A stretch of 64,000 nucleotides of DNA. Origin: Candidatus Binatia bacterium. Its GTDB lineage: Bacteria > Desulfobacterota > Binatia > UBA9968 > CAXXLF01. Positions 39,389 through 64,000 of the stretch are shown piece after piece. The position numbers and the translations under genes are program-made. Under the pieces are notes generated by a model that did no database searches, had not been told where the DNA came from, and saw only the letters and a list, made by a program, of their open reading frames with translations. The stretch lies in the NCBI GenBank assembly GCA_963664015.2, contig CAXXLF010000001.1:1184001-1248000 (forward strand), in the 5' to 3' direction. Position 1 is the stretch's first letter. The number at the start of each line of letters is the position of its first letter.

Positions 39389-39464
<76 letters not shown>

Positions 39465-39467
39465 TAA

Positions 39468-39530
39468 AATCAATAACTTGGAGGCCATTCCAATTCTCTC
39501 CATTCCTGCATTGTCCGTGTTTTGTCCGCT
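39468..39530 (+). promoter_or_regulatory. att arm: IHF site plus tandem integrase arm-type repeats
   Basis: AATCAATAACTTG matches WATCAANNNNTTR exactly (39468-80); TTGTCCGT-gtt-TTGTCCGC at 39511-29. Confidence 0.7.
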
Positions 39531-39535
39531 TTCTC

Positions 39536-40594
39536 TCATCCAACTGCCTTCATAGCGGCCACTGTTGAGTCTTTCGGTTGCTTCTCCAGGTGATTCTGTA
39601 GCTTTTCGGAGGCTTCCCGCAAATCCCTTTCGTCAACAATCCGGTAGCGACGGTACATGCTCCTTGTTTTGTGTCCTGTGATCTCCATAGCGACTGACTC
39701 TGGGACGCCGGCCCGGGACAAGTTTCGTGCTGCGCACCTTCTTAGGTCATGGACTATGATTCCATTCAGTTTGCTTTCCTTACATGCCGTTTCCCACGCT
39801 TTCCTAAAGTCCCTGATCCTTCGTCCGTTGTGGTGGAAAACGTAGGTACAATTTAAACGACGCCGTTCCGCCCTTTCCACAAGAACCTTCCAAAGTCTGC
39901 CAACCAACGGCAACACGCGCCCCTCTTTGTTTTTAGAATTTTCAATCCTAAGCCTGATAACTCGACCTTGGAGATCCACATCTCGCCATTCGAGCTTGAG
40001 TGCTTCGCCCTTGCGCCAGCCGGAAAGATATAGAAATTCCGTTACAGGCTTGAGATATTCAGGGAGTTTATCCAAAAGCTGGAGGAAGTCCCCATGTTCC
40101 AAAAAACCCTGTCTGATCCTTTCGCCGTCCAGCATTTGGAATCTTGGTTTACGGGAAAACTTACCTGCTTGCACTGCCAAAGAGAACATGCGTCCCAGGA
40201 TGGCAACCTCACGATTCACGGTTGCCCTGGAGGCACCCTCATCAAGCCTATGAACCTGGTATGCCTTCCCTTTGTCTGGGGTTATGTCAATTGCCCTGTA
40301 CAATCCAAAGAAACCTTTAAGGTGGGGGATGTAGTAATTCACCGTGGAAAGGGACCGTTTGTTGTTTACCTGGTAGTCATTTCTCAAGTCATTCACCAGG
40401 TCATCGAAAGTAAGGCGATCCTCATCAGGTCCGATGAACCTCCCAGCGTTCATCTCCCCCAGGCGTTTCTTTAGTAGTTTGCATGCCCGAGCCTCGCTCC
40501 CTGAACCCGAGCTTTCCCGAAACTCCTTTCCTCTGTGGTAGTAGGCTATCCACCAAGTGGATCCTCGTTGAAAAGTCCGTCCTATACCTCTCAT
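39536..40594 (-). CDS. tyrosine recombinase/integrase
   Basis: SGWRKGE, SKN, HDLRR, TGH and Y catalytic motifs; N-terminal arm-binding-type domain. Confidence 0.93.
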   Translation of the reverse strand: MRGIGRTFQRGSTWWIAYYHRGKEFRESSGSGSEARACKLLKKRLGEMNAGRFIGPDEDRLTFDDLVNDLRNDYQVNNKRSLSTVNYYIPHLKGFFGLYRAIDITPDKGKAYQVHRLDEGASRATVNREVAILGRMFSLAVQAGKFSRKPRFQMLDGERIRQGFLEHGDFLQLLDKLPEYLKPVTEFLYLSGWRKGEALKLEWRDVDLQGRVIRLRIENSKNKEGRVLPLVGRLWKVLVERAERRRLNCTYVFHHNGRRIRDFRKAWETACKESKLNGIIVHDLRRCAARNLSRAGVPESVAMEITGHKTRSMYRRYRIVDERDLREASEKLQNHLEKQPKDSTVAAMKAVG

Positions 40595-40806
40595 GTGTTC
40601 CTTCCTCCTTTTTTGGATTCCATGACAAGAAGGTACTTCACGGCAAGCTCGGTTGTACGGATTACTGGAAACTCCCCCCTTTCCATCCGTGCGACGCTGT
40701 TCTTATGGACACCAAGGGCCTTTCCAAGCTCTTTTTGCGTCATTTTCAACCGCAGCCTTGCGCGCTTCAGTTCTTTTCCTGACATGGTATCCAATGCGGA
40801 TATCAT
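40591..40806 (-). CDS. XRE family HTH regulator
   Basis: LKRARLRLKMTQKELGKALGVHKNSVARMERGE. Confidence 0.85.
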   Translation of the reverse strand: MISALDTMSGKELKRARLRLKMTQKELGKALGVHKNSVARMERGEFPVIRTTELAVKYLLVMESKKGGRNT

Positions 40807-40826
40807 TAGGTCACTTGTATGTCAAG

Positions 40827-41102
40827 TTATTTTCTTGTGGCCATCCATTTCTGGATACCCTGAGATGAGAACCGGAGCATCTTGGGGCCTAACTTGCGGG
40901 TGAAGGGGAGTTGGCACGCGTGGCGGTAAAGCCAGTCTTCGCTGACCGATAGAATATTGGAGGTCTCCTCAGCGTTGAGGAGCCGGTCCCCTTCCTGGTA
41001 GCTGTTTCCGTTGGTGGCGGCACAGATCTCGTCTCGGATGACTTCCCGAAGCCAGCCCTCCAAACTCTCGAAGGGGTTTAGTTTACTGTTTTGCCCATCC
41101 AT
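40827..41102 (-). CDS. excisionase-like (HTH_17/AlpA-type) DNA-binding protein
   Basis: RLLNAEETSNILSVSEDWLYR...RKLG...LRFS. Confidence 0.8.
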   Translation of the reverse strand: MDGQNSKLNPFESLEGWLREVIRDEICAATNGNSYQEGDRLLNAEETSNILSVSEDWLYRHACQLPFTRKLGPKMLRFSSQGIQKWMATRK

Positions 41103-41183
41103 TGTAGAGATTGGCTTTTAAAGTCCCTTTTGTGGCCACAACTGTGACCGGGGTAATGTCTCTAGGAAATCCATATTTTATCG

Positions 41184-41726
41184 TTAAGACTTTATCTCAA
41201 TGGGCCTCTTACTCTCCTGGAAAGCGGTGAGCTGGGCCGCATTCACCTGCTGGTTTCCAATATTCACCTGAACCGTGGGAATCAGCAGACGGCGCACCTG
41301 AGCCAGCGTCCGAATGGCCGAGAGGTAGCGTCTATGCGCACGATCTTGGTGCTGCTGGTAGTAATCGGCCTGCTTTGGGCTGATAGTTTTCATGTTTTGC
41401 GCGTAGATGGTGTCGATATAGTAAACTTGAAACCAGCACACCACCACCCGCTCTACCAGCAGCTTTTCTAACGGTGTGGGCGCTGACCCGGCGAGATCCT
41501 CTTTCATAGCCTGCAGTTTTTCATAGGTAGCCTCTTTGACCACCGTGTTGCCTCCCGAGGCGAGATTGACCAGACTATGCTCAGCCTGGAAGGCAATGTT
41601 CCCTACCTGTTCCCGTAGTGCTGGTTGAGCATCAAACTGCTTCCTCAACTCCGAAATCGCTTCCTTGTCGCCCTTTCCTGCGTATTCGAGTAGCTTAGCT
41701 GTCTTTTGTTGATTGAACTTCTTCAC
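41184..41726 (-). CDS. hypothetical helical protein (180 aa)
   Basis: Co-oriented ORF overlapping the upstream gene; TPLEKLLVERVVVCW...RRYLSAIRTLAQVR...QVNIGNQQVN. Confidence 0.75.
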   Translation of the reverse strand: MKKFNQQKTAKLLEYAGKGDKEAISELRKQFDAQPALREQVGNIAFQAEHSLVNLASGGNTVVKEATYEKLQAMKEDLAGSAPTPLEKLLVERVVVCWFQVYYIDTIYAQNMKTISPKQADYYQQHQDRAHRRYLSAIRTLAQVRRLLIPTVQVNIGNQQVNAAQLTAFQESKRPIEIKS

Positions 41727-42027
41727 GTTTCCGTCTCCATTCTCCCCGGTGGTGCTGGTGGTAGCCAGCCAGCATCAAGGTTTCCCGGACCAGGGTCTCA
41801 ACAACCTCACAGAACTTCACTACTGGAGCATCCGCCGTCTCTAAGCGGATGCGTTCGTCGCGCAAAGCTTTTGCTCTTAATTGCCGTTTCGCCCGCTGCT
41901 CCGCGTCCGTATTGGCTGCAAGCTGCCCGGCAAGGCCGCCACCGATATATTCGCGGACAACACGGCCCCTTACCTTTCTGCTTCGCGTGTAATAGAGTCC
42001 GCCCCGCTTTCGTCTCTCCCAGGCCAA
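41695..42027 (-). CDS. hypothetical basic protein (110 aa)
   Basis: MAWERRKRGGLYYTRSRKVRGRVVREYIG, a three-strand basic N-terminus suggesting DNA binding; TTG start. Confidence 0.7.
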   Translation of the reverse strand: MAWERRKRGGLYYTRSRKVRGRVVREYIGGGLAGQLAANTDAEQRAKRQLRAKALRDERIRLETADAPVVKFCEVVETLVRETLMLAGYHQHHRGEWRRKREEVQSTKDS

Positions 42028-42226
42028 ATAGGTTGTGTTACCTTTTAACTTTTGCCCCGCTTTGAGGCCCCTCCTGGATCACCGTGGCACCAGAATAAGG
42101 TACCCATTTCCAGCACGATTGAGGCCTTTTCTCAGTAAACCTGGGAGCGCCCCAAAAATGTGCAAACATGTGTAGAACAAGTGCAGAGGTATTCTCGTCT
42201 AAAATTATCCAGTAAGAATCTGCACT

Positions 42227-42308
42227 TTTGACTGCGTATCAGACGTTCCGACATAACTGCTCGGCTAATGGTCTCTTTCTCCGGCCTGTCCGTTAGTTGT
42301 CCGTGTCC
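42227..42308 (-). repeat. internal att-like site A (core plus arm repeats)
   Basis: tttga-ctgcgta-tcaga at 42227-43 and ctgtccgttagttgtccgtgtcc at 42286-308; its reverse complement aligns without gaps to 47721-47802. Confidence 0.7.
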
Positions 42309-42345
42309 CCTGCCTGCGTGCTCCAGGATTTTAAGGGGAAAATCG

Positions 42346-43149
42346 TTAAGCATGAGCTTTGGATTCCCTTTCCGTGTGGATAATCTGTAGCTCCTCGTAA
42401 GTTTTCGCCTTGAAGCTGATGAGCTCATCTTCGAAGTAAAGGTCACTCTTTGCGATCTGATTACGGAATGAGGAGAGTCGCCTCTGGGCTTCCAATTCTT
42501 CGTTGTTGGGGATATCCACAGTGCATTGTCCACCTTTAGAAGCGTGGCCCGTGGCTCCAATGGTCATCGGGCCAACGCTTTCTTTCGGACTTTCTTTTAA
42601 GTTTTTTTTAGGAGTTTCTTTTGTGTGTGCGTCCGGGTAGGACAGGCCTGTCCTAACGGCATAGGATGGAGCTATCCTACCCCCACAGGACAGCTTGTCC
42701 CGTTTGGGTAGGACAGGACTTACTGATTTGCCCTTTTTGGGTTCTGTCCTAGCAACATAGGACAGCTGCCATAGAGAGATATTCATGTTAATTGCATAGG
42801 TTTTCGGTTTTCTGTCCTTTCCGGCTAGGACAGACACAATCTTCCTTTTGAAAAGTCGTGACAGCGCTTCATGTACACGCCTTCGATCAAGTCCAGTTAA
42901 CTCCTCAAACTGACTCAGGGCGATCCTATCCCACTTTTTTCGCTCGTGCTTCGGGCGACCCTTAACATGGAAACCGAAAGTTTTGCGTAACAGTGCAGCC
43001 ACTACGCGGCCCTCGTGTGCACAAAGGTTGGCAAAGCAAAGCCGTTCAACCACCTCATTGTGAACTGGAGTCCAATGCTCGGTGTCGAGATCGTACAGAT
43101 TTGAGTCTGTAATCCCCGTCATGTCGATTCTTTTCCAGTCATCTTGCAT
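42346..43149 (-). CDS. phage lambda O-like replication initiator
   Basis: N-terminal Phage_rep_O pattern (TPVHNEVVE..., LLRKTFGF, DRIALSQFEELTGL...); iteron-coding middle; TKETPKK linker. Confidence 0.8.
   Translation of the reverse strand: MQDDWKRIDMTGITDSNLYDLDTEHWTPVHNEVVERLCFANLCAHEGRVVAALLRKTFGFHVKGRPKHERKKWDRIALSQFEELTGLDRRRVHEALSRLFKRKIVSVLAGKDRKPKTYAINMNISLWQLSYVARTEPKKGKSVSPVLPKRDKLSCGGRIAPSYAVRTGLSYPDAHTKETPKKNLKESPKESVGPMTIGATGHASKGGQCTVDIPNNEELEAQRRLSSFRNQIAKSDLYFEDELISFKAKTYEELQIIHTERESKAHA
42590..42833. repeat. intragenic replication origin: palindromic iterons plus AT-rich tract
   Basis: CTGTCCT-N8-AGGACAG variants at 42648, 42672, 42695, 42744 and 42812; half site at 42639; T-rich tract at ~42590-42622. 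Confidence 0.75.
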
Positions 43150-43329
43150 GTTTGTTCAGCCCCTGTCAGAAGATCTCCTTCCGCTCCTCTTTGCTACCAT
43201 CTATGCTTATTCGACTGCTCATCTATCCCGGCCCCTTTCAATTGCTTCTCGAACTCCCGGCTAAGTTGAGAACTGAATACTTCCTAATTCTAGACAAGCC
43301 TCTGTCATCCTACCTCCCTGGAACTCCCT

Positions 43330-44196
43330 CTACGTTTTGATCGACCGAAAGTGACCCGGAACTTTATCAAACTCAAATTTAAACCTCGTTGCGGCATTTG
43401 TGCTGTGTGGTTTAACGACCGTGAGGTAGCCTTCTTTGATTGCAGCGCGGATGAGGTTGCTAATCATGCTACGGTCGCAACCGAAAATCTCCGCCGCTTT
43501 ACGTTGCGGAAGATAAATCTCGTTTTCTTCACCCACCACAACCTGGAGCCACCCAGCGAGACTCAAGAACTCGACGTAGCGGGTAAACCTACGAGTGAGG
43601 TTGGACTTACGGGGAACTGGGAATTGTAATGCAAGGGCGTGTGCCTTATTGAGAGGACCCTCACCGGCCACGTAGCGTATCTCGTCCCACTCGTTTACGA
43701 TCTGAAACTGCTCGTCCTCGTCAAAGTCGGTAACCTGCCAGGGAATGATGTTCGCCGCCTGGCTGCCGGTAAGGTTGCGCAAGTCGGGGTGTCGCTTCAT
43801 AAGCCGTGTGAACTCCCATGTGTCCGACTTCCACCGCTCATCTGGAACATAGTCGGATAAGTTGGTAAGCAGGAAATGGTAAATCCTTTCGGTGTACTTA
43901 CCAAGAGGGAGATCCGTGGGGATACTATCTGTATCCTCTGGTACCCGACAGGGAACCTGATCCTTGTTATCCGATTCCTCTTTTCTGAGTCCTCTGACGA
44001 TACGGAGAGGTGTTGTCTTGGGGGACTCCTTACTAGCCTCTAATTCCTCTATATTCCTCTTGGTCTCCGGATCTCCGAATCCTCTAAGTCCTCTGGTAGG
44101 GTTTACCCCTTTAAGTACTTGACTTTGTGTAAGTAGGTCATTTTGACCAGCGACGTCGTTTCCCACTTGTTTTTTACTCTTTCCAGGTGTATTCAT
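43330..44196 (-). CDS. hypothetical protein with C-terminal winged HTH
   Basis: IYLPQRKAAEIFGCDRSMISNLIRAAIKEGYL; low-complexity N-terminus. Confidence 0.7.
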   Translation of the reverse strand: MNTPGKSKKQVGNDVAGQNDLLTQSQVLKGVNPTRGLRGFGDPETKRNIEELEASKESPKTTPLRIVRGLRKEESDNKDQVPCRVPEDTDSIPTDLPLGKYTERIYHFLLTNLSDYVPDERWKSDTWEFTRLMKRHPDLRNLTGSQAANIIPWQVTDFDEDEQFQIVNEWDEIRYVAGEGPLNKAHALALQFPVPRKSNLTRRFTRYVEFLSLAGWLQVVVGEENEIYLPQRKAAEIFGCDRSMISNLIRAAIKEGYLTVVKPHSTNAATRFKFEFDKVPGHFRSIKT

Positions 44197-44279
44197 ATTT
44201 ATTCCTTCTTTTTCTTGCCCCCAGTTGGACCTGACAGCGGCACGGAGAACATTGCCGCCGCCTGGCAGGGTTTCTTGTT

Positions 44280-44477
44280 TTAAGTCACTAAGTCGGGCTC
44301 AGGCCGGTTCTCCCTCTCCCGCAACCATGCCTCGATCACCGTCTCCCGGAAACGGATCGATCTCCGTCCTAGTCTAATTCTACCGGGAATCTCCCCGGAG
44401 GAAGCTTTCTTATAAACCGTCATTTGATCCCAACTGATCAAAGCCGCTAGCTCGCGGACCGAAAGTAATCGTTCCAT
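44280..44477 (-). CDS. AlpA family regulator
   Basis: MERLLSVRELAALISWDQMTVYK...IPGRIRLGRRSIRF; GGAGG RBS. Confidence 0.85.
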   Translation of the reverse strand: MERLLSVRELAALISWDQMTVYKKASSGEIPGRIRLGRRSIRFRETVIEAWLRERENRPEPDLVT

Positions 44478-44600
44478 TACAAAGCCTCCTTCCGTAGTGC
44501 CCAGATCTAAAAGGGCATAGCCCAATTTAGACAGATCACGCTAAGGCGCAATTCGTAAAATAAGAACTTTTATTTTAGGGGGGTGAGAGATTAAGGCCCG

Positions 44601-45470
44601 CTAAGAAACTATCAGGGCTCTGATAAAGCGTACTTCTTTGGGGTGGTGTTTTTGAAAGGATCTTGTATGAGCCTTTATCTGACCGTCTTTGTGAACTTGT
44701 GTCCCACCGCCTTTGATGGCTCCAGCGGCTACTAGAAGGTTCCAAAAGATCTCCCAGTGAGATCCTTTTGTTTTCTGTTTCAGGTGTTCATGGAGGGCAA
44801 AGATAACACGGTTGATTTTGTCCCTGGCTGACCCTCTTGTCTCTCCAATGGGGGAATCTCTTTCATCGATGTAGTTCTGCACAATCGCTTCCAAATGGCT
44901 TAGGGCCTTCTGAACAAGACCGCTACCGGGACTTGGCTCCCATGTGTGGTTACTAAACAGTTGCTTGGTTTTTTGAATTGCCTTTAAATCTTGGAAGTGG
45001 GCTGTAAGGTTAGTATCCTTGTGATCAAACTTTGGGACAATATTGTCATTGAGCCACAAGTACAAGGCAAATAGTGAAAAAATGAAATTTGGATCCGCAC
45101 CCTTCTCTGCAAGAGACCTAAGATAGTTCATGCCTTCGTTACTTTTAAAATGCTGAATCTTTCTTTGACACTCTTCATCATCATCCCATGCCTGGCAAAC
45201 TTTTACCCAAGCTTCTAACCACTTTGTTGTAAACGGCTTCTTTAAAGCGTCTCGCTCGCTATCATTTGGTAGTTCCCAATTAGGTCCCCTCATTGCATGA
45301 CGGAACTGATATGGAAGAGGCATTGGTTTTAGAGCTTCCGGTTTAATGGTCTTCGGAAACATTCCAAACCCCGGAATTGGGGACATCTTGACCAATTTAC
45401 TTCGTTTCACTGCCCTACCCTGCATGGACTCCTGCCTTGGCAAGGGGGGACCGAACCTGCAGGAGCGCAC
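44601..45470 (-). CDS. hypothetical protein (up to 289 aa), AT-rich
   Basis: Long ORF co-oriented with the element operon; no motif recognised; start uncertain. Confidence 0.6.
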   Translation of the reverse strand: MRSCRFGPPLPRQESMQGRAVKRSKLVKMSPIPGFGMFPKTIKPEALKPMPLPYQFRHAMRGPNWELPNDSERDALKKPFTTKWLEAWVKVCQAWDDDEECQRKIQHFKSNEGMNYLRSLAEKGADPNFIFSLFALYLWLNDNIVPKFDHKDTNLTAHFQDLKAIQKTKQLFSNHTWEPSPGSGLVQKALSHLEAIVQNYIDERDSPIGETRGSARDKINRVIFALHEHLKQKTKGSHWEIFWNLLVAAGAIKGGGTQVHKDGQIKAHTRSFQKHHPKEVRFIRALIVS

Positions 45471-45645
45471 GGCTTTTCGGGTCCGGCTCCCTAGACTTTC
45501 TTGTTATCGTAATTTTAAGGCCGGCGCATTGAAACGCAAGGCAAAAACACTATCGCCTGCGCTCGCAAGTGAATCATAATGCCGAACTAACAATGCGGAG
45601 AAGTTAGAGGTTGTGGTAAGCCATGTGCGCGTTACCTCACAGCAT

Positions 45646-45921
45646 CTATTTTTCACGCTTTCTCTGAGCAAGGAGTTCAGACGGCTCCACGCCCAACGCC
45701 CAGGCAATTCGGCAGATGTTGTCTATGGCAATGTTGCGCTCGTAGCGCTCGACTGACCCAAGGTAGGTACGGTGAATCCCCGCCTTGTCTGCTAGGCCCT
45801 CCTGTGACCATCCACGTTTGAGCCTGAGACGTCGGATATTTGCCGCAAGAATTAGCCGGCCATTGACTGGCTTCCCTTCCGGTGATCGTAACTCGCTGGA
45901 ACCTAGAGAGCTTCGCCTCAC
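45646..45921 (-). CDS. XRE HTH protein resembling R-M controller (C) proteins
   Basis: NIRRLRLKRGWSQEGLADKAGIHRTYLGSVERYERNI (HRTY recognition helix). Confidence 0.85.
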   Translation of the reverse strand: MRRSSLGSSELRSPEGKPVNGRLILAANIRRLRLKRGWSQEGLADKAGIHRTYLGSVERYERNIAIDNICRIAWALGVEPSELLAQRKREK

Positions 45922-45940
45922 GCCCCTAGAAAATCGGTTT

Positions 45941-45972
45941 GACTTCTATACATATACAGACAATGAGTAGCC
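45941..45972 (-). promoter_or_regulatory. C-box-like operator
   Basis: Minus strand GCTACTCATTGTCTGTATATGTATAGAAGTC, just upstream of the C-like gene. Confidence 0.5.
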
Positions 45973-46201
45973 TCTGTACAATAGACAGTTTCGGGTCTCG
46001 ATAGAGAGAAGGAGTGAGGACCTTGCCCTCAAGGTGGGGATTAGGACCTCATCCTATCAAGAAAACTGTACGTTGTGTATAGAGCATGTGACGAGGGTCA
46101 ACACGCACACTGACCTGACCATTGATGTCAAAGAACTAAACGTCTAGAGTCCATGGGTTTACGGGTGTAGTAGACAGCATTCGATGTGTTGCAGATAAAA
46201 A

Positions 46202-47131
46202 ATGGATGCCAGACAGGAACTGCCGATTCAGAATCAATCCCCGGCAACGGAGTGGGACAGGGATGTTTCCCGAAGGGCGCTCGATGAACTGTTTCGCCTT
46301 GCTGGAGAGTATAACGCCACAAAGGATTACTACGAGCTTCTTCAGTTCGTGGGTCGTTTTCGCTTCTACTCCCCCTATAACGCGATGTTGATTCATACAC
46401 AGATGCCGGGTGCTCAGTTTGTTGCGCCGCCAGACCGCTGGCTTCGCAAATATCGCCGACGGATCAAGCCTGGGGCACGTTCGCTGGTTATCCTCCGACC
46501 GATGGGTCCGGTGATGTTCGTCTACGACGTTTCGGACACCGAGCCGGAGAAGGACGCGCCACAACTGCCTCCTGAGATCGAACGACCCTTTGAAGTTCGG
46601 GGAGGGCACGTGGGTAGTGAATCGTGTATCTCTATGGAAAATGCCAAGCGAGACGGTATTGAAATCACTAGGAGGCAAGCTGGCTCACAGAGCGCTGGCG
46701 AAATCCGCAAGGCCGAAAACGTGAGGGACGTCACGTTCCAAACCAAAAAGAGACCAGAACCCGAGTACGTAAGCATCCGTGTCCGGTATGACCTCCTACT
46801 GAATTCCCAGCTGTCTGGCGAGGCACAATATGCGACACTAGTCCACGAGCTTGGGCATTTATATTGTGGCCATTTGGGCACGCCAAACCCAAAGTGGTGG
46901 CCGGATCGGCGGGGTTTATCGCGTGAGCTTTGCGAATTCGAGGCGGAGTCGGTCTGCTATCTCTTGTGCCGCCGACTTGGTATCGACAATCCCTCGGCCG
47001 AATACCTTTCTGGTTACGTTAAGAATCACCAAGAGACTCCTAGAATCAGCCTTGAATGTGTGATGAAGTCGGCGGGGCTGATTGAGCAAATGGGGCGCGA
47101 GCGCCTCAAGCCTCGGAAGGAGGAGAAGTAG
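46202..47131 (+). CDS. ArdC-like ssDNA-binding domain plus ImmA/IrrE-type metallopeptidase
   Basis: YSPYNAMLI, W...IKPG and VYDVSDT in the N-domain; HELGH and EFEAESV in the C-domain. Confidence 0.8.
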   Translation: MDARQELPIQNQSPATEWDRDVSRRALDELFRLAGEYNATKDYYELLQFVGRFRFYSPYNAMLIHTQMPGAQFVAPPDRWLRKYRRRIKPGARSLVILRPMGPVMFVYDVSDTEPEKDAPQLPPEIERPFEVRGGHVGSESCISMENAKRDGIEITRRQAGSQSAGEIRKAENVRDVTFQTKKRPEPEYVSIRVRYDLLLNSQLSGEAQYATLVHELGHLYCGHLGTPNPKWWPDRRGLSRELCEFEAESVCYLLCRRLGIDNPSAEYLSGYVKNHQETPRISLECVMKSAGLIEQMGRERLKPRKEEK

Positions 47132-47720
47132 GTAGCGAACAAAATAGCAATTCACAAATCCTGGGCGAGGAAGAATTCGCTTCAGCCTGGATATCCCTCG
47201 ACTTTGCATTTGTTGTTTGGATCAAGGCCGATTGAGCATTCCGGCACTGTCTGGACGGCACCGGCAAGAACAACAGTGATTGTTGACGCCACGGGCGGCT
47301 AATAATCAGAAGCCACGCCCAAGTAGTATCACTCCATGAATCGATTCTTGACTTCAATGGCTCAGCTACAGCAATGAAACTTGACTGGCTTCACATTTTG
47401 CTTCTGGTACTCGTCCGTGCGCTTAGCTAATTTCTTTGGTTCGATCAGTACCGGCATGAACACTTTTGGAACTAAAAGCTGGCAAGAATCCATCGCATTA
47501 CAGGACGTGTCGAACTGCTTACGCCTTCCCACGGTTGGCAGCAATTGCATCCAGCAAGGCAAGTTATGCAATCACTTAGCGCCAAGGAAGCGGGAGGACG
47601 ATATGAAATTGAAGAACCGCCATGAGTGGTGATTCGTTTTTTGAATTGAAGACGTGCTTACCAAGCGCAGTAAGTATGACCTCTGTATCTCCCTGGGTTG
47701 CCAATCCGTATCCCTCCGAA

Positions 47721-48103: not shown

Positions 48104-48270
48104 ATGATGAGCCAGGACGAATTATTCGCCATCTCCGACGTGGCTAGCCTCCTCAAGGTGGCGGAGAAGACTGTGTACGGTCCCGCCCGGAAGAGCGACA
48201 TCCCAAGTTTCAATGTCGGCGGCCGGTAGCGGTTCCGCGAACGGCATTCGATTCCTGGATGGAGCGGAAT
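48104..48270 (+). pseudogene. small excisionase-like HTH upstream of hsdR, disrupted
   Basis: MMSQDELFAISDVASLLKVAEKTVY...IPSFNVGGR*RF (TAG in place of the usual Trp). Confidence 0.65.
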
Positions 48271-51046
48271 GACCGAAGCAATGGCTGACAAGAACCAGAC
48301 TCCCGAACAGAAGGCCCGCGACACCATCAACCATATGCTGGGCCAGGCCGGATGGAAGGTGCAGTCGAAAAAAAAGATCGACTTCAGTGCCGGCTCCGGC
48401 ATCGCCGTTCGTGAGTACCAGACTGATGTCGGCCCCGCCGACTATGTTCTGTTTATCGGCAAAAACCCCGTCGGCGTTGTAGAGGCCAAGCCGGAGGATT
48501 GGGGCCAGAAGATCACGACGGTCGAGGAGCAATCCGCCGCCTATGCCGCTGCCAATCTCAAGTGGCTGAACAATAGAGAGCCCCTGCCGTTCGTTTATGA
48601 AAGCACCGGCGTGCTGACGCGCTTCACCGACACGCGCGATCCTAAGCCCCGCTCCCGGGAGGTGTTCAGCTTCCCTCGGCCGGAGACGGTGCAGGACTGG
48701 CATACCCAGTCGGCCTCGCTCCGTTTGCGGCTCCGGGAGCTTCCGAATCTGGACCCCACGGGCCTGAGAGCTTGCCAGACCAATGCCATCGAGAGGCTGG
48801 AGGCATCCTTCAAAGATAACCGCCCGCGCGCCCTCATTCAGATGGCCACCGGCTCGGGCAAGACCTACGCCGCCATCACCTCAATCTACCGGCTGCTGAA
48901 ACACGCTGACGCCAAGCGGATCCTCTTTCTGGTAGACACCAAGAATCTGGGCGAACAGGCCGAGCAGGAATTCATGGCCTACGTGCCCAACGACGACAAC
49001 CGCAAATTCACCGAGCTTTACAACGTCCAACGCCTCCAATCGTCCTTCGTCGCCAAGGACAGCCAAGTCTGCATCAGCACCATCCAGCGTATGTACTCGC
49101 TCCTGAAGGACCAGGAGATGTACGAAGCCGCCGAGGAGATCAATCCTGCGGAGCTGGTTCAGCCCCATCAACCCATGCCGGTTGTCTATAACGGCAAGAT
49201 TCCGCCTGAGTTCTTTGACTTCACCATCATCGACGAATGCCACCGCTCGATCTATAACCTCTGGCGCCAGGTCTTGGAATATTTCGACGCCTATCTCATC
49301 GGCTTGACAGCCACGCCGGACAGCCGCACCTACGGGTTCTTCAGGAAGAACGTCGTCAGCGAATACAGCCATGAGCAAGCCGTCGCCGACGGCGTCAATG
49401 TCGGCAACGAGATCTATGTCATCGACACGGAGAAGACCATGCATGGCGGCCAACTCAAAGCGGACCAGCAGGTCGAGAAGCGCGAGCGCCTGACGCGCCG
49501 AAGACGCTGGGAGATCCAGGATGAAGATGTCATCTATGCCGCCCAGCAACTCGACCGCGACATCGTCAACCCCGATCAGATCCGCACCATTGTCCGCACC
49601 TTCCGCAACAAGCTGCCGGAGATATTTCCCGGCCGCGACGAAGTACCGAAGACGCTCGTTTTTGCCAAGACCGACAGTCACGCCGACGACGTCATCCAGA
49701 CCGTGCGGGAGGAATTCGCCGAAGGCAATGAGTTCTGCAAGAAGGTCACCTACAAGGTCGAAGAAGACCCGAAATCCGTGCTTGCCCAGTTCCGAAACGA
49801 CTACTACCCGCGCATCGCCGTGACCGTGGACATGATCGCCACGGGCACCGACGTCAAGCCGCTCGAATGCCTGCTCTTCATGCGCGACGTGAGGAGCCGT
49901 AACTATTTCGAGCAGATGAAGGGCCGCGGGACCCGCACCCTCGACCATGACGATCTCATGAAAGTCTCGCCCTCCGCTGTCAGTGGGAAGACCCACTACG
50001 TAATCGTAGACGCCGTCGGCGTCACGCAATCGCTCAAGACCGCCAGCCAGCCTCTCATCACCAAGCCCTCCGTGCCGCTCAAGGACCTCGCCACGGGCGT
50101 GATGATGGGTGCTCGCGACGAGGACACGGTAAGTTCCCTTGCCGGCCGCCTGGCCCGTCTGAACCGGCAACTTGACGACAAGGACCGGGAGCGCATCAGG
50201 GAGAAGACCGGCGGCATGGAGCTAAACGACATCGTCGGTAACTTGCTCGCCGCCATCGATCCCGACCGCATTGAGAACAAGGCCCGGCAGATTGACAGCC
50301 TCCCCGAAGACGCGGAACCGCCGGAGCAAACACGCCAAAAGGCTCAGGAACAGTTGGTCGGTGACGCCGCCGGTGTGTTCAACGGTGAACTGATCGAGCT
50401 GATCGACTCGATTCGCCGCGACAAGGAACAGACCATCGACCACGAGGGCCTCGACACCGTGCTCCGCGCCGAATGGAAGGGCAACGCCCATGAGAACGCC
50501 AAGGCTACTGCGCAGGACTTCCGGCAATACCTGGAAGATAACCGCGACCGGATCGAAGCCCTGACCATCTTCTTTGCCCAACCGCACCGGCGCCGCGAGC
50601 TGACCTACGCCATGATCCGGGAGGTATTCGACAAGCTGAAATACGACAAACCCCGCCTGGCCCCCTTGCGGGTCTGGGGAGCATATGCCCTGCTCGATGA
50701 ATACAAGGGCCGGCAACCGGCGAGCGACTTGACGGCGCTCGTTGCGTCGATCCGGTGGGCCTGCGGCATTGATGCGAAAGTCTCGCCCTATTCGGAAACC
50801 GTGCGGCGCAACTTCCAGAACTGGATCATGACGCGCCACAGCGGCAGTGGAGAGAAATTCAATGAGGAGCAGATGGCATGGCTGCGAATGATTCGCGACC
50901 ACATCATCAGCTCCTTTCATCTGGAGCGCGACGACCTCGACATGGCTCCGTTCGATGGCAAGGGCGGCCTGGGGCAAATGTACAAGCTCTTCGGCGACCG
51001 GATGGATGGGGTGATTGATGAATTGAACGAGGTGTTGGCGGCGTGA
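48269..51046 (+). CDS. hsdR: type I restriction endonuclease subunit R (EcoAI/EcoEI-like)
   Basis: ADY...VEAK nuclease motif, MATGSGKT, DECHRS, LTATP and QMKGRGTR. Confidence 0.93.
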   Translation: MTEAMADKNQTPEQKARDTINHMLGQAGWKVQSKKKIDFSAGSGIAVREYQTDVGPADYVLFIGKNPVGVVEAKPEDWGQKITTVEEQSAAYAAANLKWLNNREPLPFVYESTGVLTRFTDTRDPKPRSREVFSFPRPETVQDWHTQSASLRLRLRELPNLDPTGLRACQTNAIERLEASFKDNRPRALIQMATGSGKTYAAITSIYRLLKHADAKRILFLVDTKNLGEQAEQEFMAYVPNDDNRKFTELYNVQRLQSSFVAKDSQVCISTIQRMYSLLKDQEMYEAAEEINPAELVQPHQPMPVVYNGKIPPEFFDFTIIDECHRSIYNLWRQVLEYFDAYLIGLTATPDSRTYGFFRKNVVSEYSHEQAVADGVNVGNEIYVIDTEKTMHGGQLKADQQVEKRERLTRRRRWEIQDEDVIYAAQQLDRDIVNPDQIRTIVRTFRNKLPEIFPGRDEVPKTLVFAKTDSHADDVIQTVREEFAEGNEFCKKVTYKVEEDPKSVLAQFRNDYYPRIAVTVDMIATGTDVKPLECLLFMRDVRSRNYFEQMKGRGTRTLDHDDLMKVSPSAVSGKTHYVIVDAVGVTQSLKTASQPLITKPSVPLKDLATGVMMGARDEDTVSSLAGRLARLNRQLDDKDRERIREKTGGMELNDIVGNLLAAIDPDRIENKARQIDSLPEDAEPPEQTRQKAQEQLVGDAAGVFNGELIELIDSIRRDKEQTIDHEGLDTVLRAEWKGNAHENAKATAQDFRQYLEDNRDRIEALTIFFAQPHRRRELTYAMIREVFDKLKYDKPRLAPLRVWGAYALLDEYKGRQPASDLTALVASIRWACGIDAKVSPYSETVRRNFQNWIMTRHSGSGEKFNEEQMAWLRMIRDHIISSFHLERDDLDMAPFDGKGGLGQMYKLFGDRMDGVIDELNEVLAA

Positions 51047-52638
51047 GTAACGAGATTAATATTCTTCCTGAAGGGTGGCAGAAGACCACTCTTGAGCATC
51101 TGATTACCAGGATTAGCAATGGAGTAAATGTAACCCAGCATGAAGAGAGGATAGGGCTGCCTATAACCAGAATAGAAACTATCTGGAACGGGACAATAGA
51201 TCTCAATAGGGTAAAGTATATTAAGGAAGTTAACGACGAATTAAGATTAAACTACGGGCTTATGAATGGCGATATATTGTTCAGTCATATAAATAGCGAC
51301 AGCCATTTAGGGAAGACTGCGATTTTTCAGTCACAAGTAAAGTGTCTGATTCATGGTATCAATCTTCTGCTAATAAGGCCATCAGCAGAAATTTCGAGTG
51401 AATATCTGAATTATCATTTTCAGTTGTTACGCCAAAATGGCGAATTTGTTGCTGTTGCACAGCGTGCCGTTAATCAGTCATCGATTAACCAGAGGCAGCT
51501 AAAGGCCTTCGAGTTTGTTCTTCCCCCCTTCAATGAACAGCGCCGCATCGTCGCCAAGATCGAGGAACTCTTCTCAGAACTGGACAAGGGCGTCGAGAGC
51601 CTGAAGACGGCACGCGCGCAGATCGATGTCTACCGCCAGGCTGTGCTCAAGCACGCCTTCGAAGGCAAGCTCACGGCCAGATGGCGCGAAGAGAACAAAG
51701 ACAAGCTTGAGAAGCCCGAACAGTTGCTCGCTCGTATCAAGCAGGAACGGGCGGCGCGCTACGATCGGCAACTTCAGGAGTGGAAGGCTGCTGTCAAAGA
51801 ATGGGAGGCGAAGGATCAGCTGGGCAAGAAGCCTCCAAAACCAGCCTCGTTGATGGCTTCGGTTCCAATCGCGCAGAGTGAGTTGATCGGACTCCCGAAC
51901 ATCCCACAGTTATGGCAATACGTCCGACTATCGGAAATCGCTGACATAGGTTCGGGAATGTCAGTTAGCAAGTCGCGCAAGCTTGGTGTCCCAATTGAGA
52001 TTCCATACTTAAGTGTAGCCAATGTTCAGCGCGGTGTACTCGACCTCTCGACAGTCAAGATCATGAAAATCGAGAGCTCCCAACTACCCAGGCTCGCGCT
52101 TAAGCGATGGGACGTTCTCTTCAACGAAGGGGGGGACCGTGACAAGCTGGGCAGAGGGTGGGTGTGGGAGTCGAAGATAGAACCTTGTATTACGCAAAAC
52201 CATGTGTTCCGCGCAAGCCCGTTTCTTGAGTCCCACCAACACTCCAAATGGATCTCGCACTGGGGCAACACCTTCGGCCAACTATACTTCGAGGCACAGG
52301 GAAAACAGACGACAAACCTCGCATCAATCAACAAGACAGTTCTCAGTAGATTTCCTGTCCCTCTCCCACCGATCGAGGAACAAGAGGAAATGATTCAAAG
52401 ACTCGAAAACCAAACGGCGATCATCGACCGCTTGGAACAGAATGTTGCGAGTTCCCTTGAAAAGCTGAACGCCTTACGCCAGTCGATTCTGAAGACAGCC
52501 TTTGCCGGCCAACTCGTCGCGCAGGACCCCAGCGATGAGCCCGCGTCGGTTCTTCTGGACAGGATCAGAGCCGAAAGAGAAAAGACTGTGAAGAACAAAA
52601 CCCCCAAGAAGAAAAATAAAGGGAAGGCCGCCGCATGA
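51043..52638 (+). CDS. hsdS: type I specificity subunit S
   Basis: Two TRDs with PPFNEQRRIV and PPIEEQEEM conserved regions; AFEGKL/AFAGQL; DEPASVLL. Confidence 0.92.
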   Translation: MSNEINILPEGWQKTTLEHLITRISNGVNVTQHEERIGLPITRIETIWNGTIDLNRVKYIKEVNDELRLNYGLMNGDILFSHINSDSHLGKTAIFQSQVKCLIHGINLLLIRPSAEISSEYLNYHFQLLRQNGEFVAVAQRAVNQSSINQRQLKAFEFVLPPFNEQRRIVAKIEELFSELDKGVESLKTARAQIDVYRQAVLKHAFEGKLTARWREENKDKLEKPEQLLARIKQERAARYDRQLQEWKAAVKEWEAKDQLGKKPPKPASLMASVPIAQSELIGLPNIPQLWQYVRLSEIADIGSGMSVSKSRKLGVPIEIPYLSVANVQRGVLDLSTVKIMKIESSQLPRLALKRWDVLFNEGGDRDKLGRGWVWESKIEPCITQNHVFRASPFLESHQHSKWISHWGNTFGQLYFEAQGKQTTNLASINKTVLSRFPVPLPPIEEQEEMIQRLENQTAIIDRLEQNVASSLEKLNALRQSILKTAFAGQLVAQDPSDEPASVLLDRIRAEREKTVKNKTPKKKNKGKAAA

Positions 52639-54074
52639 ACACCGCTCCTATCGTTTCCAAAGTCTGGAGCTTCTGCACCACCCTGCGCGATGACGGGGTC
52701 GGCTATGGCGACTACCTGGAGCAGCTCACCTATCTGATCTTCCTCAAGATGGCCGACGAGTACGGGAAGCCGCCGCACAAACGCGATGTCGGCATCCCCG
52801 TTGAATACAACTGGCAGAACCTGAAATCGAAGAACGGTGCGGAGCTCGAAAGCCACTACGTCACCCTGCTGCGCCAGCTCGGCACCAAGAAGGGCATGCT
52901 GGGGCAGATCTTCACCAAAGCCCAGAACAAGGTCCAGGACCCGGCGAAGCTCTATCGCCTTATCGACATGGTGGACGACACCGAGTGGGTCACCATGGGC
53001 GCCGACATCAAGGGCGATATCTACGAAAACCTGCTGGAGCGAAACGCCGAGGACACCAAGTCGGGCGCCGGGCAGTATTTCACGCCGCGCGCCCTCATCC
53101 GTGCCATGGTCGAGTGTGTGCGGCCCGAACCGAGCAAGCTCATCGCCGACCCGGACAACTTCAAGCTCGACAAGAAGCAGAAGGCGTTTCTGAAGCACGA
53201 AGAGTTTCACGGCAACGAGATCGTCGCCAACACGCGCCGCCTGTGCCTGATGAACATGTTCCTGCACAACATCGGTGAGATCGACGGCGGCGCGCCCATA
53301 TCGTCGAATGATTCGTTGGTCGCCGATGCCGGGAAGCGTTTTGACTATGTGCTAGCGAACCCGCCTTTCGGCAAGAAGAGCTCCATGAGCTTTACGAACG
53401 AGGAGGGCGAGCAGGAAAAGGACGACCTGACCTACAACCGACAGGATTTCTGGGCGACCACCTCGAACAAACAGCTCAATTTCGTGCAGCACATTCGCAC
53501 CATGCTCAAGACTACCGGACGCGCCGCCGTCGTCGTGCCGGACAACGTGTTGTTTGAAGGCGGCGCCGGTGAGACGATCCGCAAGAAATTGCTGGACATC
53601 ACGGACCTGCACACCATCCTTCGGCTTCCAACCGGCGTGTTCTACGCGCAAGGGGTCAAGGCCAATGTGATCTTCTTCGATAACCACGAAGCCAGCCCGA
53701 ACCCCTGGACGAAACAAGTCTGGTACTACGACTACCGCACCAATATTCATCACACATTAAAGAAAAAGCCGATGCGCTTCGAGGACCTGTCGGACTTCGT
53801 CAGGTGCTACAACCCGCAGAACCGGCACAAGCGAAAGGCCGCCTGGGACGAGAAGGACGCGCCGGAAGGCCGTTGGCGCAGCTACAGCTATGAGGAGATC
53901 AGCGCGCGCGACAAGACCAGCCTCGATATTTTCTGGCTCAAGGACAAGAACCTGACCGACCTGGACAACCTGCCTGACCCCGACGACCTCGCCGAAGAGA
54001 TCATCGAGAACCTCGAAGCTGGCCTGAATAGTTTTCGCGAGGTACTCGCCGGTTTGCGGCAAGCAGGTAGTTGA
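52635..54074 (+). CDS. hsdM: type I methyltransferase subunit M, lacking motif I
   Basis: GQYFTPR, NPPF and LRLPTG present; DPACGTGGF absent (IADP runs straight into DNFKL). Confidence 0.88.
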   Translation: MNTAPIVSKVWSFCTTLRDDGVGYGDYLEQLTYLIFLKMADEYGKPPHKRDVGIPVEYNWQNLKSKNGAELESHYVTLLRQLGTKKGMLGQIFTKAQNKVQDPAKLYRLIDMVDDTEWVTMGADIKGDIYENLLERNAEDTKSGAGQYFTPRALIRAMVECVRPEPSKLIADPDNFKLDKKQKAFLKHEEFHGNEIVANTRRLCLMNMFLHNIGEIDGGAPISSNDSLVADAGKRFDYVLANPPFGKKSSMSFTNEEGEQEKDDLTYNRQDFWATTSNKQLNFVQHIRTMLKTTGRAAVVVPDNVLFEGGAGETIRKKLLDITDLHTILRLPTGVFYAQGVKANVIFFDNHEASPNPWTKQVWYYDYRTNIHHTLKKKPMRFEDLSDFVRCYNPQNRHKRKAAWDEKDAPEGRWRSYSYEEISARDKTSLDIFWLKDKNLTDLDNLPDPDDLAEEIIENLEAGLNSFREVLAGLRQAGS

Positions 54075-54146
54075 ATGTGCGAACCGCCAGATCAGGCCGA
54101 GGAAGCGGATAACATATATACCCCCCTTGTCGACCCCATGTTTCCC

Positions 54147-54176
54147 TTGACACCCTTTCCTGGGCTGTCCTATATT
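54147..54176 (+). promoter_or_regulatory. sigma-70 promoter
   Basis: TTGACA-18 bp-TATATT. Confidence 0.6.
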
Positions 54177-54183
54177 CCCGCTC

Positions 54184-54309
54184 GCAACTATCGTGCAGAT
54201 CCCCGTGACTCGGTTATCTGCTCAATACAATAACCCAACCAAGGTTCGGATTAGCTATCCGAGCTGGGTGAATAGGCAGAACTTCACACATCATCTGTGC
54301 GATAGTTGC
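54184..54309 (+). ncRNA. candidate structured RNA or leader (126 nt)
   Basis: 17-bp terminal stem GCAACUAUCGUGCAGAU/AUCUGUGCGAUAGUUGC (two G-U pairs), nested inner helices; begins at the predicted +1. Confidence 0.5.
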
Positions 54310-54368
54310 AAAATGGCCCGGCAATTTTGCCCGGTCACGACATCACTCTCTAACTAACAGGAGAAATC

Positions 54369-55413
54369 ATGTTTCACATCGTTTTTGCACTTTTGTTGCT
54401 ATTACTTGGGTGGATGCAGTGCAGGGGGCGGAGGTACGCAAGTTACCATGCAGCCACCTCCACCTGTTGTTGTTCCAACTCCCGAAGGAAATGCAGTCCG
54501 TACCGCTGCCAAAGCGATCCCCAACTTCGGTAGTGTCACGCAATCGAGCAATGTGAGCTCGACCAACGTCACGTTCGATACCGCCAGAGCGTCATTCGAC
54601 GGGACGAATGGCCGGGTTACAATCACCCACCAGGATTCCAGCACTACCACGCTGGACACCACCGTGGACTCAGTTATTCACGATAGCACCGAGTTCCCAA
54701 GTCTTATAAGATCTGGTTACCGCCACCGGCAGGTAGCCATAAAGAAGGCCGGGAGCGATGACATATATGCGGTTCTCGGAGCCGATTGGAAATCCGGAGA
54801 CCCGACCGACTACGTGGGGTACGGGTTTTGGCTCAAAGCGGATAATTTCAGGACCCCATCGATGAATATCCACGAGGTAGGAACATTCCTGGATGGTCCA
54901 GAACTGCGCGGCAATCCCATCGTGCCAGTAAGTGGAAGCGCTACCTATCGAGGCAAGTCCCAGGGGTATTATATTGCCGAGGTCGGGAGCAATCAGGAGA
55001 TTCCCCAGGGCTCGCGCGCATGGGGGGAGTTCGAGGCCGATGCCACTCTCCAGGCCGACTTCGATGCTGGAACGATAGGCGGCTCTATCAACAATGCTAC
55101 AGTGATTGAGGACGCAGCAAATCCCGAAGGACAGATGCTATACATGAACAACAGCTACTCGGTCGATTACGTTCTTACCTTGGAAACTACCCCCATCGGC
55201 ACCGGCCAGTTCGTAGGCGACACCTCCATGAGCAGTCCTTCAAGGCAAGTCGCATCATCTAGCGGCAAGTGGGGCGGGCAGTTCTCCAACCGGCCAGTGA
55301 GCGCCACCGACGGCGATCCACGGCTAGTGGGCGGAACATTCGGCGGCGGCATCACCGAAGCGGACGGCAGCCGCTTTGACTATATCGGCGCTTTCGGCGC
55401 AGCTAAGCAGTAG
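54369..55413 (+). CDS. transferrin-binding-protein-like (TbpB beta-barrel) lipoprotein; signal peptide frameshifted
   Basis: AGGAG RBS and MFHIVFALLLLL, with lipobox LGGC in the next frame (extra G near 54409); PVSGSATYRG, ADFDAGTIGG, GKWGGQF and GAFGA. Confidence 0.7.
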
Positions 55414-55680: not shown

Positions 55681-57126
55681 CGTGTTAAGCCATCAAAAAA
55701 TCTAACCCTAGCGGGATTCGTTGCGTCATTACAAAATCTAACCGAAGTCGTCTCGCATCTGTCGTTTCATGTCCTGTTGTTGGCGCTGTAGTTTCTTGCT
55801 GAAGGTCCAGTTTCTCCACGGCGTTTGTTTCAGCGGTGGTCTCTCTCGTGGGGCTCTGTCTGCATGGCTGGCCAGCTTGTAGATCCGCTGCAGTTGCTGA
55901 TCGATTCGGGTAGAGAGCTCGAAGGGATCAGTTGTCTTAAGCGTGTGCTTGAGGGCTGCCAGCTTTTTGGGGTCTCCCTTTCGGGACTCCACGACCCGTT
56001 CGAACGGGGTACGAGGCGTGTCATAGCGGCGAATAAGTCGAGAGCCTATACGGATCTTGCATCGCAGCTTCATGGAGGGCTGGAACAGATTCTGGAAGAT
56101 CCTAAGCTCATCATAGAGCTGGTTGGCGGCCTCTTGGGCCTTTGCGGTGTCGTAGCGATCCCAGCCCATAAGCTTTCTGACATGGGTCCAGTTTTTCTGC
56201 TCGATGTGCGCGTTGTCATCTTTTTTGTAGGGACGCGAGCGGGTGAACTGAATGGTGTGGCCAGCTGGGCGTTGTTGACAGAAGGCAAGAAGGCGGTTGT
56301 TGATAAACTCACTGCCGTTGTCGGAGTCGATCCCCTTGAGGGGAAAAGGAAGCTGGTGTTCGATCTCGGTGACCGCATTCAAGACACCCAAAGCGCTCTT
56401 ACCCATGACGGCCTTGCGCTCTACCCAGCAGGTAGCAATGTCGACACAGTCCAGACTATGGACAAACTCCCCAACCGCTGAGGCCCCTGAGTGTGACACC
56501 AGGTCAATCTCCAGATAGCCCGGCCGGTTCACATCCCAGTGATCGGTCTTAATCGGGATCATCTGCTTTAGTAGCGATCCGGGCCGAGTGGTGCCATAGA
56601 GTCGGCGTTTCACGATGTGCTTGGTTTCCCTCAGGCGCCGATCCATCTGACGGGCGCTGATGGCCAGGAGCTGATCCTCTAACGGTTGGGTCAGCTCGAA
56701 GTGTTGCCTTATCCAGGGCAACCAGTGTACAAGGGCGGCCTTCAGACGTTGGGAGCACAGATACCCCGAGGCCTCCCACACCTTTGCCAAAATCCTTACC
56801 ATTGCCCGATTGTATGTAGGAGAGCGAGGTGCACCCCGTTTGCGTACAGTTGCCTCGGGCAAGGGCCGGTTTAAAAGCCAGATGGCATATTTGCGGTTGT
56901 AGCCGTAAACCTTGCAGAATTCCTCTAGCATCGTTCCCTTCTGTGCCCGTGGTGCGTGCTGATAACGATCATAGATGGATCGTAAATACTCCTGCTTGGA
57001 TCGTCGTGCCATGGTGAACCCTTCCATTGTTGCCCTCCTTGAGCTCTAATGTGAGCCCTTGGAGGGTTAGAATCACAAATGGCGCAACGTATCGCCCTTG
57101 GGTTAGATTATACATGGCGCAATACG
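55681..57126 (-). mobile_element. insertion sequence, copy 1 (DDE/rve transposase)
   Basis: Left end defined by identity with copy 2; two GGTTAGA..ATGRCGCAA-type repeats at each end, in inverted orientation. Confidence 0.85.
55738..57027 (-). CDS. DDE (rve integrase core) transposase
   Basis: EIDLVSH, DSDNGSEFIN and SRPYKKDDNAHIEQKN. Confidence 0.9.
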   Translation of the reverse strand: MEGFTMARRSKQEYLRSIYDRYQHAPRAQKGTMLEEFCKVYGYNRKYAIWLLNRPLPEATVRKRGAPRSPTYNRAMVRILAKVWEASGYLCSQRLKAALVHWLPWIRQHFELTQPLEDQLLAISARQMDRRLRETKHIVKRRLYGTTRPGSLLKQMIPIKTDHWDVNRPGYLEIDLVSHSGASAVGEFVHSLDCVDIATCWVERKAVMGKSALGVLNAVTEIEHQLPFPLKGIDSDNGSEFINNRLLAFCQQRPAGHTIQFTRSRPYKKDDNAHIEQKNWTHVRKLMGWDRYDTAKAQEAANQLYDELRIFQNLFQPSMKLRCKIRIGSRLIRRYDTPRTPFERVVESRKGDPKKLAALKHTLKTTDPFELSTRIDQQLQRIYKLASHADRAPRERPPLKQTPWRNWTFSKKLQRQQQDMKRQMRDDFG

Positions 57127-63287: not shown

Positions 63288-64000
63288 CGTGTTAAGCCAT
63301 CAAAAAATCTAACCCTAGCGGGATTCGTTGCGTCATTACAAAATCTAACCGAAGTCGTCTCGCATCTGTCGTTTCATGTCCTGTTGTTGGCGCTGTAGTT
63401 TCTTGCTGAAGGTCCAGTTTCTCCACGGCGTTTGTTTCAGCGGTGGTCTCTCTCGTGGGGCTCTGTCTGCATGGCTGGCCAGCTTGTAGATCCGCTGCAG
63501 TTGCTGATCGATTCGGGTAGAGAGCTCGAAGGGATCAGTTGCCTTAAGCGTGTGCTTGAGGGCTGCCAGCTTTTTGGGGTCTCCCTTTCGGGACTCCACG
63601 ACCCGTTCGAACGGGGTACGAGGCGTGTCATAGCGGCGAATAAGTCGAGAGCCTATACGGATCTTGCATCGCAGCTTCATGGAGGGCTGGAACAGATTCT
63701 GGAAGATCCTAAGCTCATCATAGAGCTGGTTGGCGGCCTCTTGGGCCTTTGCGGTGTCGTAGCGATCCCAGCCCATAAGCTTTCTGACATGGGTCCAGTT
63801 TTTCTGCTCGATGTGCGCGTTGTCATCTTTTTTGTAGGGACGCGAGCGGGTGAACTGAATGGTGTGGCCAGCTGGGCGTTGTTGACAGAAGGCAAGAAGG
63901 CGGTTGTTGATAAACTCACTGCCGTTGTCGGAGTCGATCCCCTTGAGGGGAAAAGGAAGCTGGTGTTCGATCTCGGTGACCGCATTCAAGACACCCAAAG
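63288..64000 (-). mobile_element. insertion sequence, copy 2 (truncated by the window edge)
   Basis: Near-identical to 55681 onward; one T/A amino acid difference in the visible part. Confidence 0.9.

Follow-up and report, generated by a model that had tools for sequence, protein, structure and literature searches.

A type I restriction-modification operon of a Candidatus Binatia bacterium, most likely inactive, with an in-frame deletion of the SAM-binding motif of HsdM

Results

Organisation of the hsd operon

The window analysed here, a 64,000-nt stretch of the genome of a Candidatus Binatia bacterium, contains three overlapping open reading frames on the forward strand (positions 48269–54074) that we identified as hsdR, hsdS and hsdM (Table 1). 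This order is the usual one in relatives of the operon. The assignment of hsdR is based on Pfam matches to ResIII (1.5e-39) and EcoEI_R_C (7.2e-35), accompanied by SWI2_SNF2, HSDR_N, DEAD and Helicase_C, and on the PADLOC model REase_I (1.7e-47). Related HsdR proteins of about 921 residues align to residues 5–925 of the window protein, and its translation carries the VVEAK nuclease motif together with GSGKT, DECH, TAT and QMKGRGTR. The protein combines the nuclease N-terminus and the SF2 helicase motor that characterise type I restriction subunits.

The hsdS gene begins with a GTG codon that overlaps the hsdR stop by 4 nt. Pfam matched Methylase_S over two stretches (2.6e-19) and PADLOC matched Specificity_I (9e-110), in agreement with the two target-recognition domains typical of a type I specificity subunit; the HsdS proteins of full-length relatives mostly span 486–535 residues. 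An earlier reading made from the sequence alone (hereafter the sequence-only reading) regarded hsdR and hsdS as intact, and both are indeed full length. The hsdM gene follows, its ATG start overlapping the hsdS stop by 4 nt, and matches N6_Mtase (3.5e-61) and HsdM_N (2.4e-12) in Pfam and MTase_I (2.4e-183) in PADLOC. Scanning the operon for promoters and terminators returned counts at the level of shuffled sequence.

Table 1. Features of the hsd locus and its surroundings (positions in the window).
Feature	Position	Strand	Description
tRNA-Ala(GGC)	39389..39464	+	Likely integration site of the element carrying the operon
Tyrosine integrase of putative island	39536..40594	-	Immediately downstream of tRNA-Ala; Pfam Phage_integrase 1.4e-23
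Replication-protein-O-like gene	42346–43149	-	Within the putative integrative element 39389–47200
hsdR	48269..51046	+	925 aa, full length; Pfam, PADLOC, relatives
hsdS	51043..52638	+	531 aa, two target-recognition domains; Pfam, PADLOC
hsdM	52635..54074	+	479 aa, 18-aa (54-bp) in-frame deletion; Pfam, PADLOC, alignment of relatives
Deletion junction GCC GAC CCG GAC (A171 D172 P173 D174)	53145..53156	+	Site of the 54 bp that would encode motif I and the next helix
Motif IV NPPF, residues 242–245	53358..53369	+	Retained in hsdM
IS element	55681..57126	-	Just downstream of the operon; ORF 55738–57027, 429 aa

Genomic setting

Upstream of the operon lies a putative integrative element that, besides the tRNA gene, the integrase and the replication gene, contains several open reading frames with no family match. 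The GC content is 0.48–0.53 over 39–48 kb, compared with 0.55–0.58 in the preceding 34–39 kb. A search for an att-like direct repeat of the tRNA-Ala 3' end (seed 12) found none. On the other side of the operon, the open reading frame of the IS element shows a weak Pfam match to rve (E 8.6e-4, 20 bits, below the 32.6-bit cut-off). Four copies of this IS are present in the genome at 99.9–100% identity, two of them in the window (55681–57126 and 63288–64000), and the element is probably active.

The window hsdM was found in none of four genomes of the same family. Proteins 83–88% identical to this HsdM occur in metagenome-assembled genomes labelled Latescibacterota, Binatia, Gemmatimonadota, Marinacidobacterales, Gammaproteobacteria and Alphaproteobacteria (loci L012–L028 and L086), and many HsdM alleles of the family lie side by side in the four sequencing runs that we examined. 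This suggests that a single type I backbone has spread widely by horizontal transfer within communities. Taken together, the tRNA gene and integrase, the lower GC content, the IS copy, the absence of this hsdM from the four genomes of the same family and the distribution of its relatives across phyla point to a horizontally acquired system.

Two open reading frames adjoin the operon. Directly upstream of hsdR, a 309-codon frame (46202–47131, forward strand) encodes an HExxH metallopeptidase of the Peptidase_M78/IrrE-like type (E 1.1e-4). It also matches the C-terminal part of the PADLOC model RT_III-A (positions 369–576 of 597; 2.5e-13), the reverse transcriptase part being absent. An ArdC-like identity, considered on the basis of a motif, was rejected, as Pfam at E values up to 5 returned only Peptidase_M78 and weak metallopeptidase matches. 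Just downstream of hsdM, a 342-codon frame (54385–55413, forward strand) has a weak match to the TbpB beta-barrel (E 2.1e-3), and its exact sequence as called here is absent from a collection of 15 billion proteins.

The genome encodes a second, apparently complete type I system at C2:1245560–1252211 (locus L211). This comprises an hsdM of 573 codons with both YDPTVGSGG and NPPF, an hsdS of 417 codons and an hsdR of 998 codons, followed by a YgjP-like metallopeptidase gene. The two HsdM proteins are 28% identical.

HsdM lacks motif I and the helix that follows

Alignment of the window HsdM with 11 close relatives (84–97% identity) revealed a single gap of 18 columns (columns 173–190), present in the window row only. 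The relatives read PACGTGGFFL(A/S)AYDF(I/M/L)T(N/D) across these columns. In the closest of them, P0001, a protein of 497 residues that is 97% identical over the aligned columns, the segment is PACGTGGFFLSAYDFITD; at the corresponding point the window protein reads GQYFTPRALIRAMVECVRPEPSKLIADP and continues directly with DNFKLDKKQK. The SAM-binding motif I and the next helix are therefore absent, and the reading frame is kept. The alignment to the closest HsdM homologs that the sequence-only reading had called for thus confirmed the 18 missing residues, and with them its claim of a clean in-frame deletion. That reading had placed the junction at gccgacccg, which we located at 53145–53153, between two DP codons; the letters shared at the junction given in Table 1 leave its exact breakpoint ambiguous. 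It had also reported NPPF in the remaining protein, and this motif is present.

Of the sequence features expected of a gamma-class N6-adenine methyltransferase, motif IV, NPP(F/Y/W), is thus retained as NPPF. Motif I, the DPxxGTGGF glycine loop that is a defining feature of a functional type I system, is absent. The locus is homologous to type I restriction-modification systems, but it cannot be counted among their active members.

An AlphaFold2 model of the deletion protein, built from a 12-row alignment, had a mean pLDDT of 33.3 and a pTM of 0.25 and was uninformative, probably because the alignment was shallow. To our knowledge, AlphaFold2 is unable to judge if a deletion destabilises a fold.

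The deletion is a single occurrence among the relatives

The best 120 database matches to the window HsdM are 492–500 residues long, compared with 479 in the window. In the loci of 87 relatives, DPxxGTxGF comes after the GQYFTPR landmark in each of its 88 occurrences, which leaves the window as the sole exception; loci L002, L008 and L009 were left out of this count of 88 copies because they lack the exact GQYFTPR string. A scan of metagenome_contigs with the back-translated junction IADPDNF(K/N)LD gave no match, and the same scan with the intact IADPACGTGGFF pattern gave at least 119. The assembled sequence thus genuinely contains the hsdM deletion, which no other relative seen shares.

Other irregularities occur elsewhere in the family, and decay of a partner gene is not uncommon there. 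In the 58 relatives' loci whose upstream flank was complete, HsdR was full length in 39, a partial open reading frame in seven, not found in eight and cut by the edge of the locus in four. Shortened hsdR frames are present in, among others, L014, L016, L024, L044 and L083. One member of the HsdM cluster, P0130 (439 residues), has a frameshifted C-terminus, and L032 contains hsdM twice, at a spacing of about 5 kb.

Read-level evidence at the junction

The sequence-only reading had raised the possibility of a collapsed assembly. In this explanation, the deletion would be an assembly artefact or a minority allele: most of the population would carry an intact hsdM, and the assembler would have chosen or created a path shorter by 54 bp, an outcome made easier by co-resident organisms with many near-identical hsdM alleles. 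The reads were examined in the form of Logan contigs only, from four of 13 runs (X8, X9, X10 and X13). Pieces identical to the window were identified at 52000–52534, 52789–52910, 53720–53859 and 53990–54500, at a depth of about 3–9. The interior of hsdM was shattered in these contigs by co-resident alleles that are 90–95% alike and carry motif I.

Several observations would fit an artefact. Many related alleles with motif I are present in the runs that contain the window stretch, and in all four runs loose ends of other alleles start after position 53154 and read CCTGCGGCACCGGCGGCTTCTT (ACGTGGFF). One X8 contig (depth 8.87) has an insertion of 39 letters relative to the window, between 53154 and 53140; the depth of those pieces of the organism itself that match the window without a difference is similar, at 5–9. 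Among the pieces listed, no zero-difference piece bridges 53140–53160. However, those listed pieces whose ends fall at or near the junction show 8–10 mismatches to the window per 100–120 letters, which indicates that they come from other organisms, and the flanking repeat of 9–15 nt is too short to cause an assembly collapse. The genome itself is made up of two contigs (1,267,001 and 2,247,815 bases) and contains no N. In addition, the identical 479-residue HsdM has records on two contigs, as do the identical HsdR and HsdS, the longest contig being 3,357,617 bases; these two records may stem from the same data and so may not be independent. An artefact or minority allele is less likely given this identical allele on a second contig record, and overall we consider it an unlikely explanation.

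Origin and age of the deletion

In the DNA of relatives, the segment missing from the window hsdM is flanked by similar short stretches that form a quasi-repeat. In L018, for example, the flanks read CTC ATC GCC GAC CCG GCC ... TTC ATC ACC AAC CCG GAC, and in P0001 they correspond to IADP...ITDP at the protein level. Judging from relatives 83–88% identical in HsdM, which are more distant than P0001, we infer that the ancestral repeat was perfect over about 9 nt and extended imperfectly to about 15 nt. One repeat plus the spacer amounts to exactly 54 bp, which fits replication slippage or microhomology-mediated deletion. Either process is a likely mechanism for the lesion, and the proposed event would be a recent loss of 54 bp between (C/T)TC ATC GCC GAC CCG G and TTC ATC ACC (G/A)A(C/T) CCG G.

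We compared hsdR, hsdS and the remainder of hsdM with their relatives in search of further decay and saw none. At columns otherwise invariant among 66 sequences, the window HsdM has no private change. The window HsdR has two such changes (L827S and R830W) at otherwise invariant columns, which places it mid-rank (16th of 36). Of the 15 differences between the window HsdM and P0001, four are derived in the window, six are derived in P0001 and five are ambiguous. As decay is absent elsewhere in the operon, the deletion looks recent. Continued selection on the shortened protein would likewise be compatible with the lack of further decay in hsdM.

Discussion

Predicted effect on the system

We propose that a recent 54-bp deletion removed the SAM loop of HsdM and that the horizontally acquired hsd operon is most likely r-m-, off as a whole. 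Our estimate of the probability of this reading is roughly 0.75. The starting state would have been a horizontally acquired, translationally coupled type I operon, hsdR-hsdS-hsdM, in which slippage or a microhomology-mediated event took out the glycine-rich SAM-binding loop together with the following helix of the Rossmann fold. The resulting HsdM is predicted to be unable to bind SAM, and it would probably neither fold nor assemble properly. Methylation and restriction alike depend on SAM and on the M2S core. An r-m- state is therefore the most likely one, and the system would be silent as a whole and free of self-restriction, though hsdR and hsdS are still intact. Both outcomes are predictions from the sequence. 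Cells with a null hsdM are r-m- and viable, as classical genetics established, and for this reason the mechanism is not a surprising one.

The premise of this argument, which the sequence-only reading had stated as known, agrees with excerpts of two published sources. Type I enzymes depend on ATP, Mg2+ and SAM for their activity, and motif I forms the site at which gamma-class methyltransferases bind SAM (both from the excerpt of PMC3874165). Cofactor binding by EcoKI was affected by G177D, a substitution in motif I (excerpt of PMC2647291, citing Willcock et al. 1994).

A different explanation is that the shortened HsdM has been repurposed and is kept as a working, SAM-independent part, either as a scaffold for an HsdS/HsdR translocase or nuclease or as a regulator. 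Such a role would account for the preserved frame and translational coupling and for the lack of extra decay in hsdR, hsdS and the remaining hsdM, but a recent event explains the missing decay equally well. The allele shows no sign of having been selected, as it occurs in none of the 88 copies of relatives and has no metagenome match. Moreover, the lost helix belongs to the Rossmann core, and an enzyme competent for restriction and dead for methylation would attack the host's own DNA. We consider repurposing very improbable. No more credible is the specific proposal that HsdM without motif I serves as a SAM-blind structural subunit, so that an HsdS-HsdM-HsdR complex assembles and acts on DNA without modifying it; if true, nature would have separated a type I system from methylation, for example as a translocase-based defence or a regulator under other control.

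Of the three outcomes that the sequence-only reading had offered, silencing of the whole system is thus the best supported, by inference; nothing supports repurposing, and the second contig record makes a collapsed assembly less likely. The locus is probably an ordinary decayed type I restriction-modification locus with an r-m- phenotype, and it adds little to existing knowledge of type I systems. It offers a clean natural example in which one small slippage event in hsdM may silence restriction and modification without harming the cell. It is also relevant to annotation: given the strong family scores of HsdM (Pfam 3.5e-61, PADLOC 2.4e-183), automatic annotation and defence counts would score an intact system here, though it is most likely off.

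Comparison with known systems

A close parallel to the lesion is the G177D variant of EcoKI HsdM, another type I methylase subunit altered in the SAM-binding motif I, where the change impairs cofactor binding (excerpt of PMC2647291). The window HsdM matches EcoKI M with an E value of 1.4e-88. Whereas the EcoKI variant is one engineered substitution, the window protein has a natural deletion of 18 residues, covering the motif and the next helix, and is known from its sequence.

The locus also resembles the damaged restriction-modification genes recorded in REBASE, as described in the excerpt of PMC3874165, in that one of three hsd genes is damaged and the others remain. It differs from them in that the lesion is in-frame. 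A long open frame is left, so ordinary annotation would call this hsdM intact.

Among solved structures, the best relative is the “StySJI M protein” of Bacteroides thetaiotaomicron (PDB 2okc), which aligns with residues 6–440 at an E value of 4.5e-118 and has the same order of domains. The 18-residue gap in the window protein is present against this structure and against those of EcoKI M (2y7c/2ar0). Where the window HsdM has nothing, 2okc contains acgtGGFLLtaydymkgqsa.
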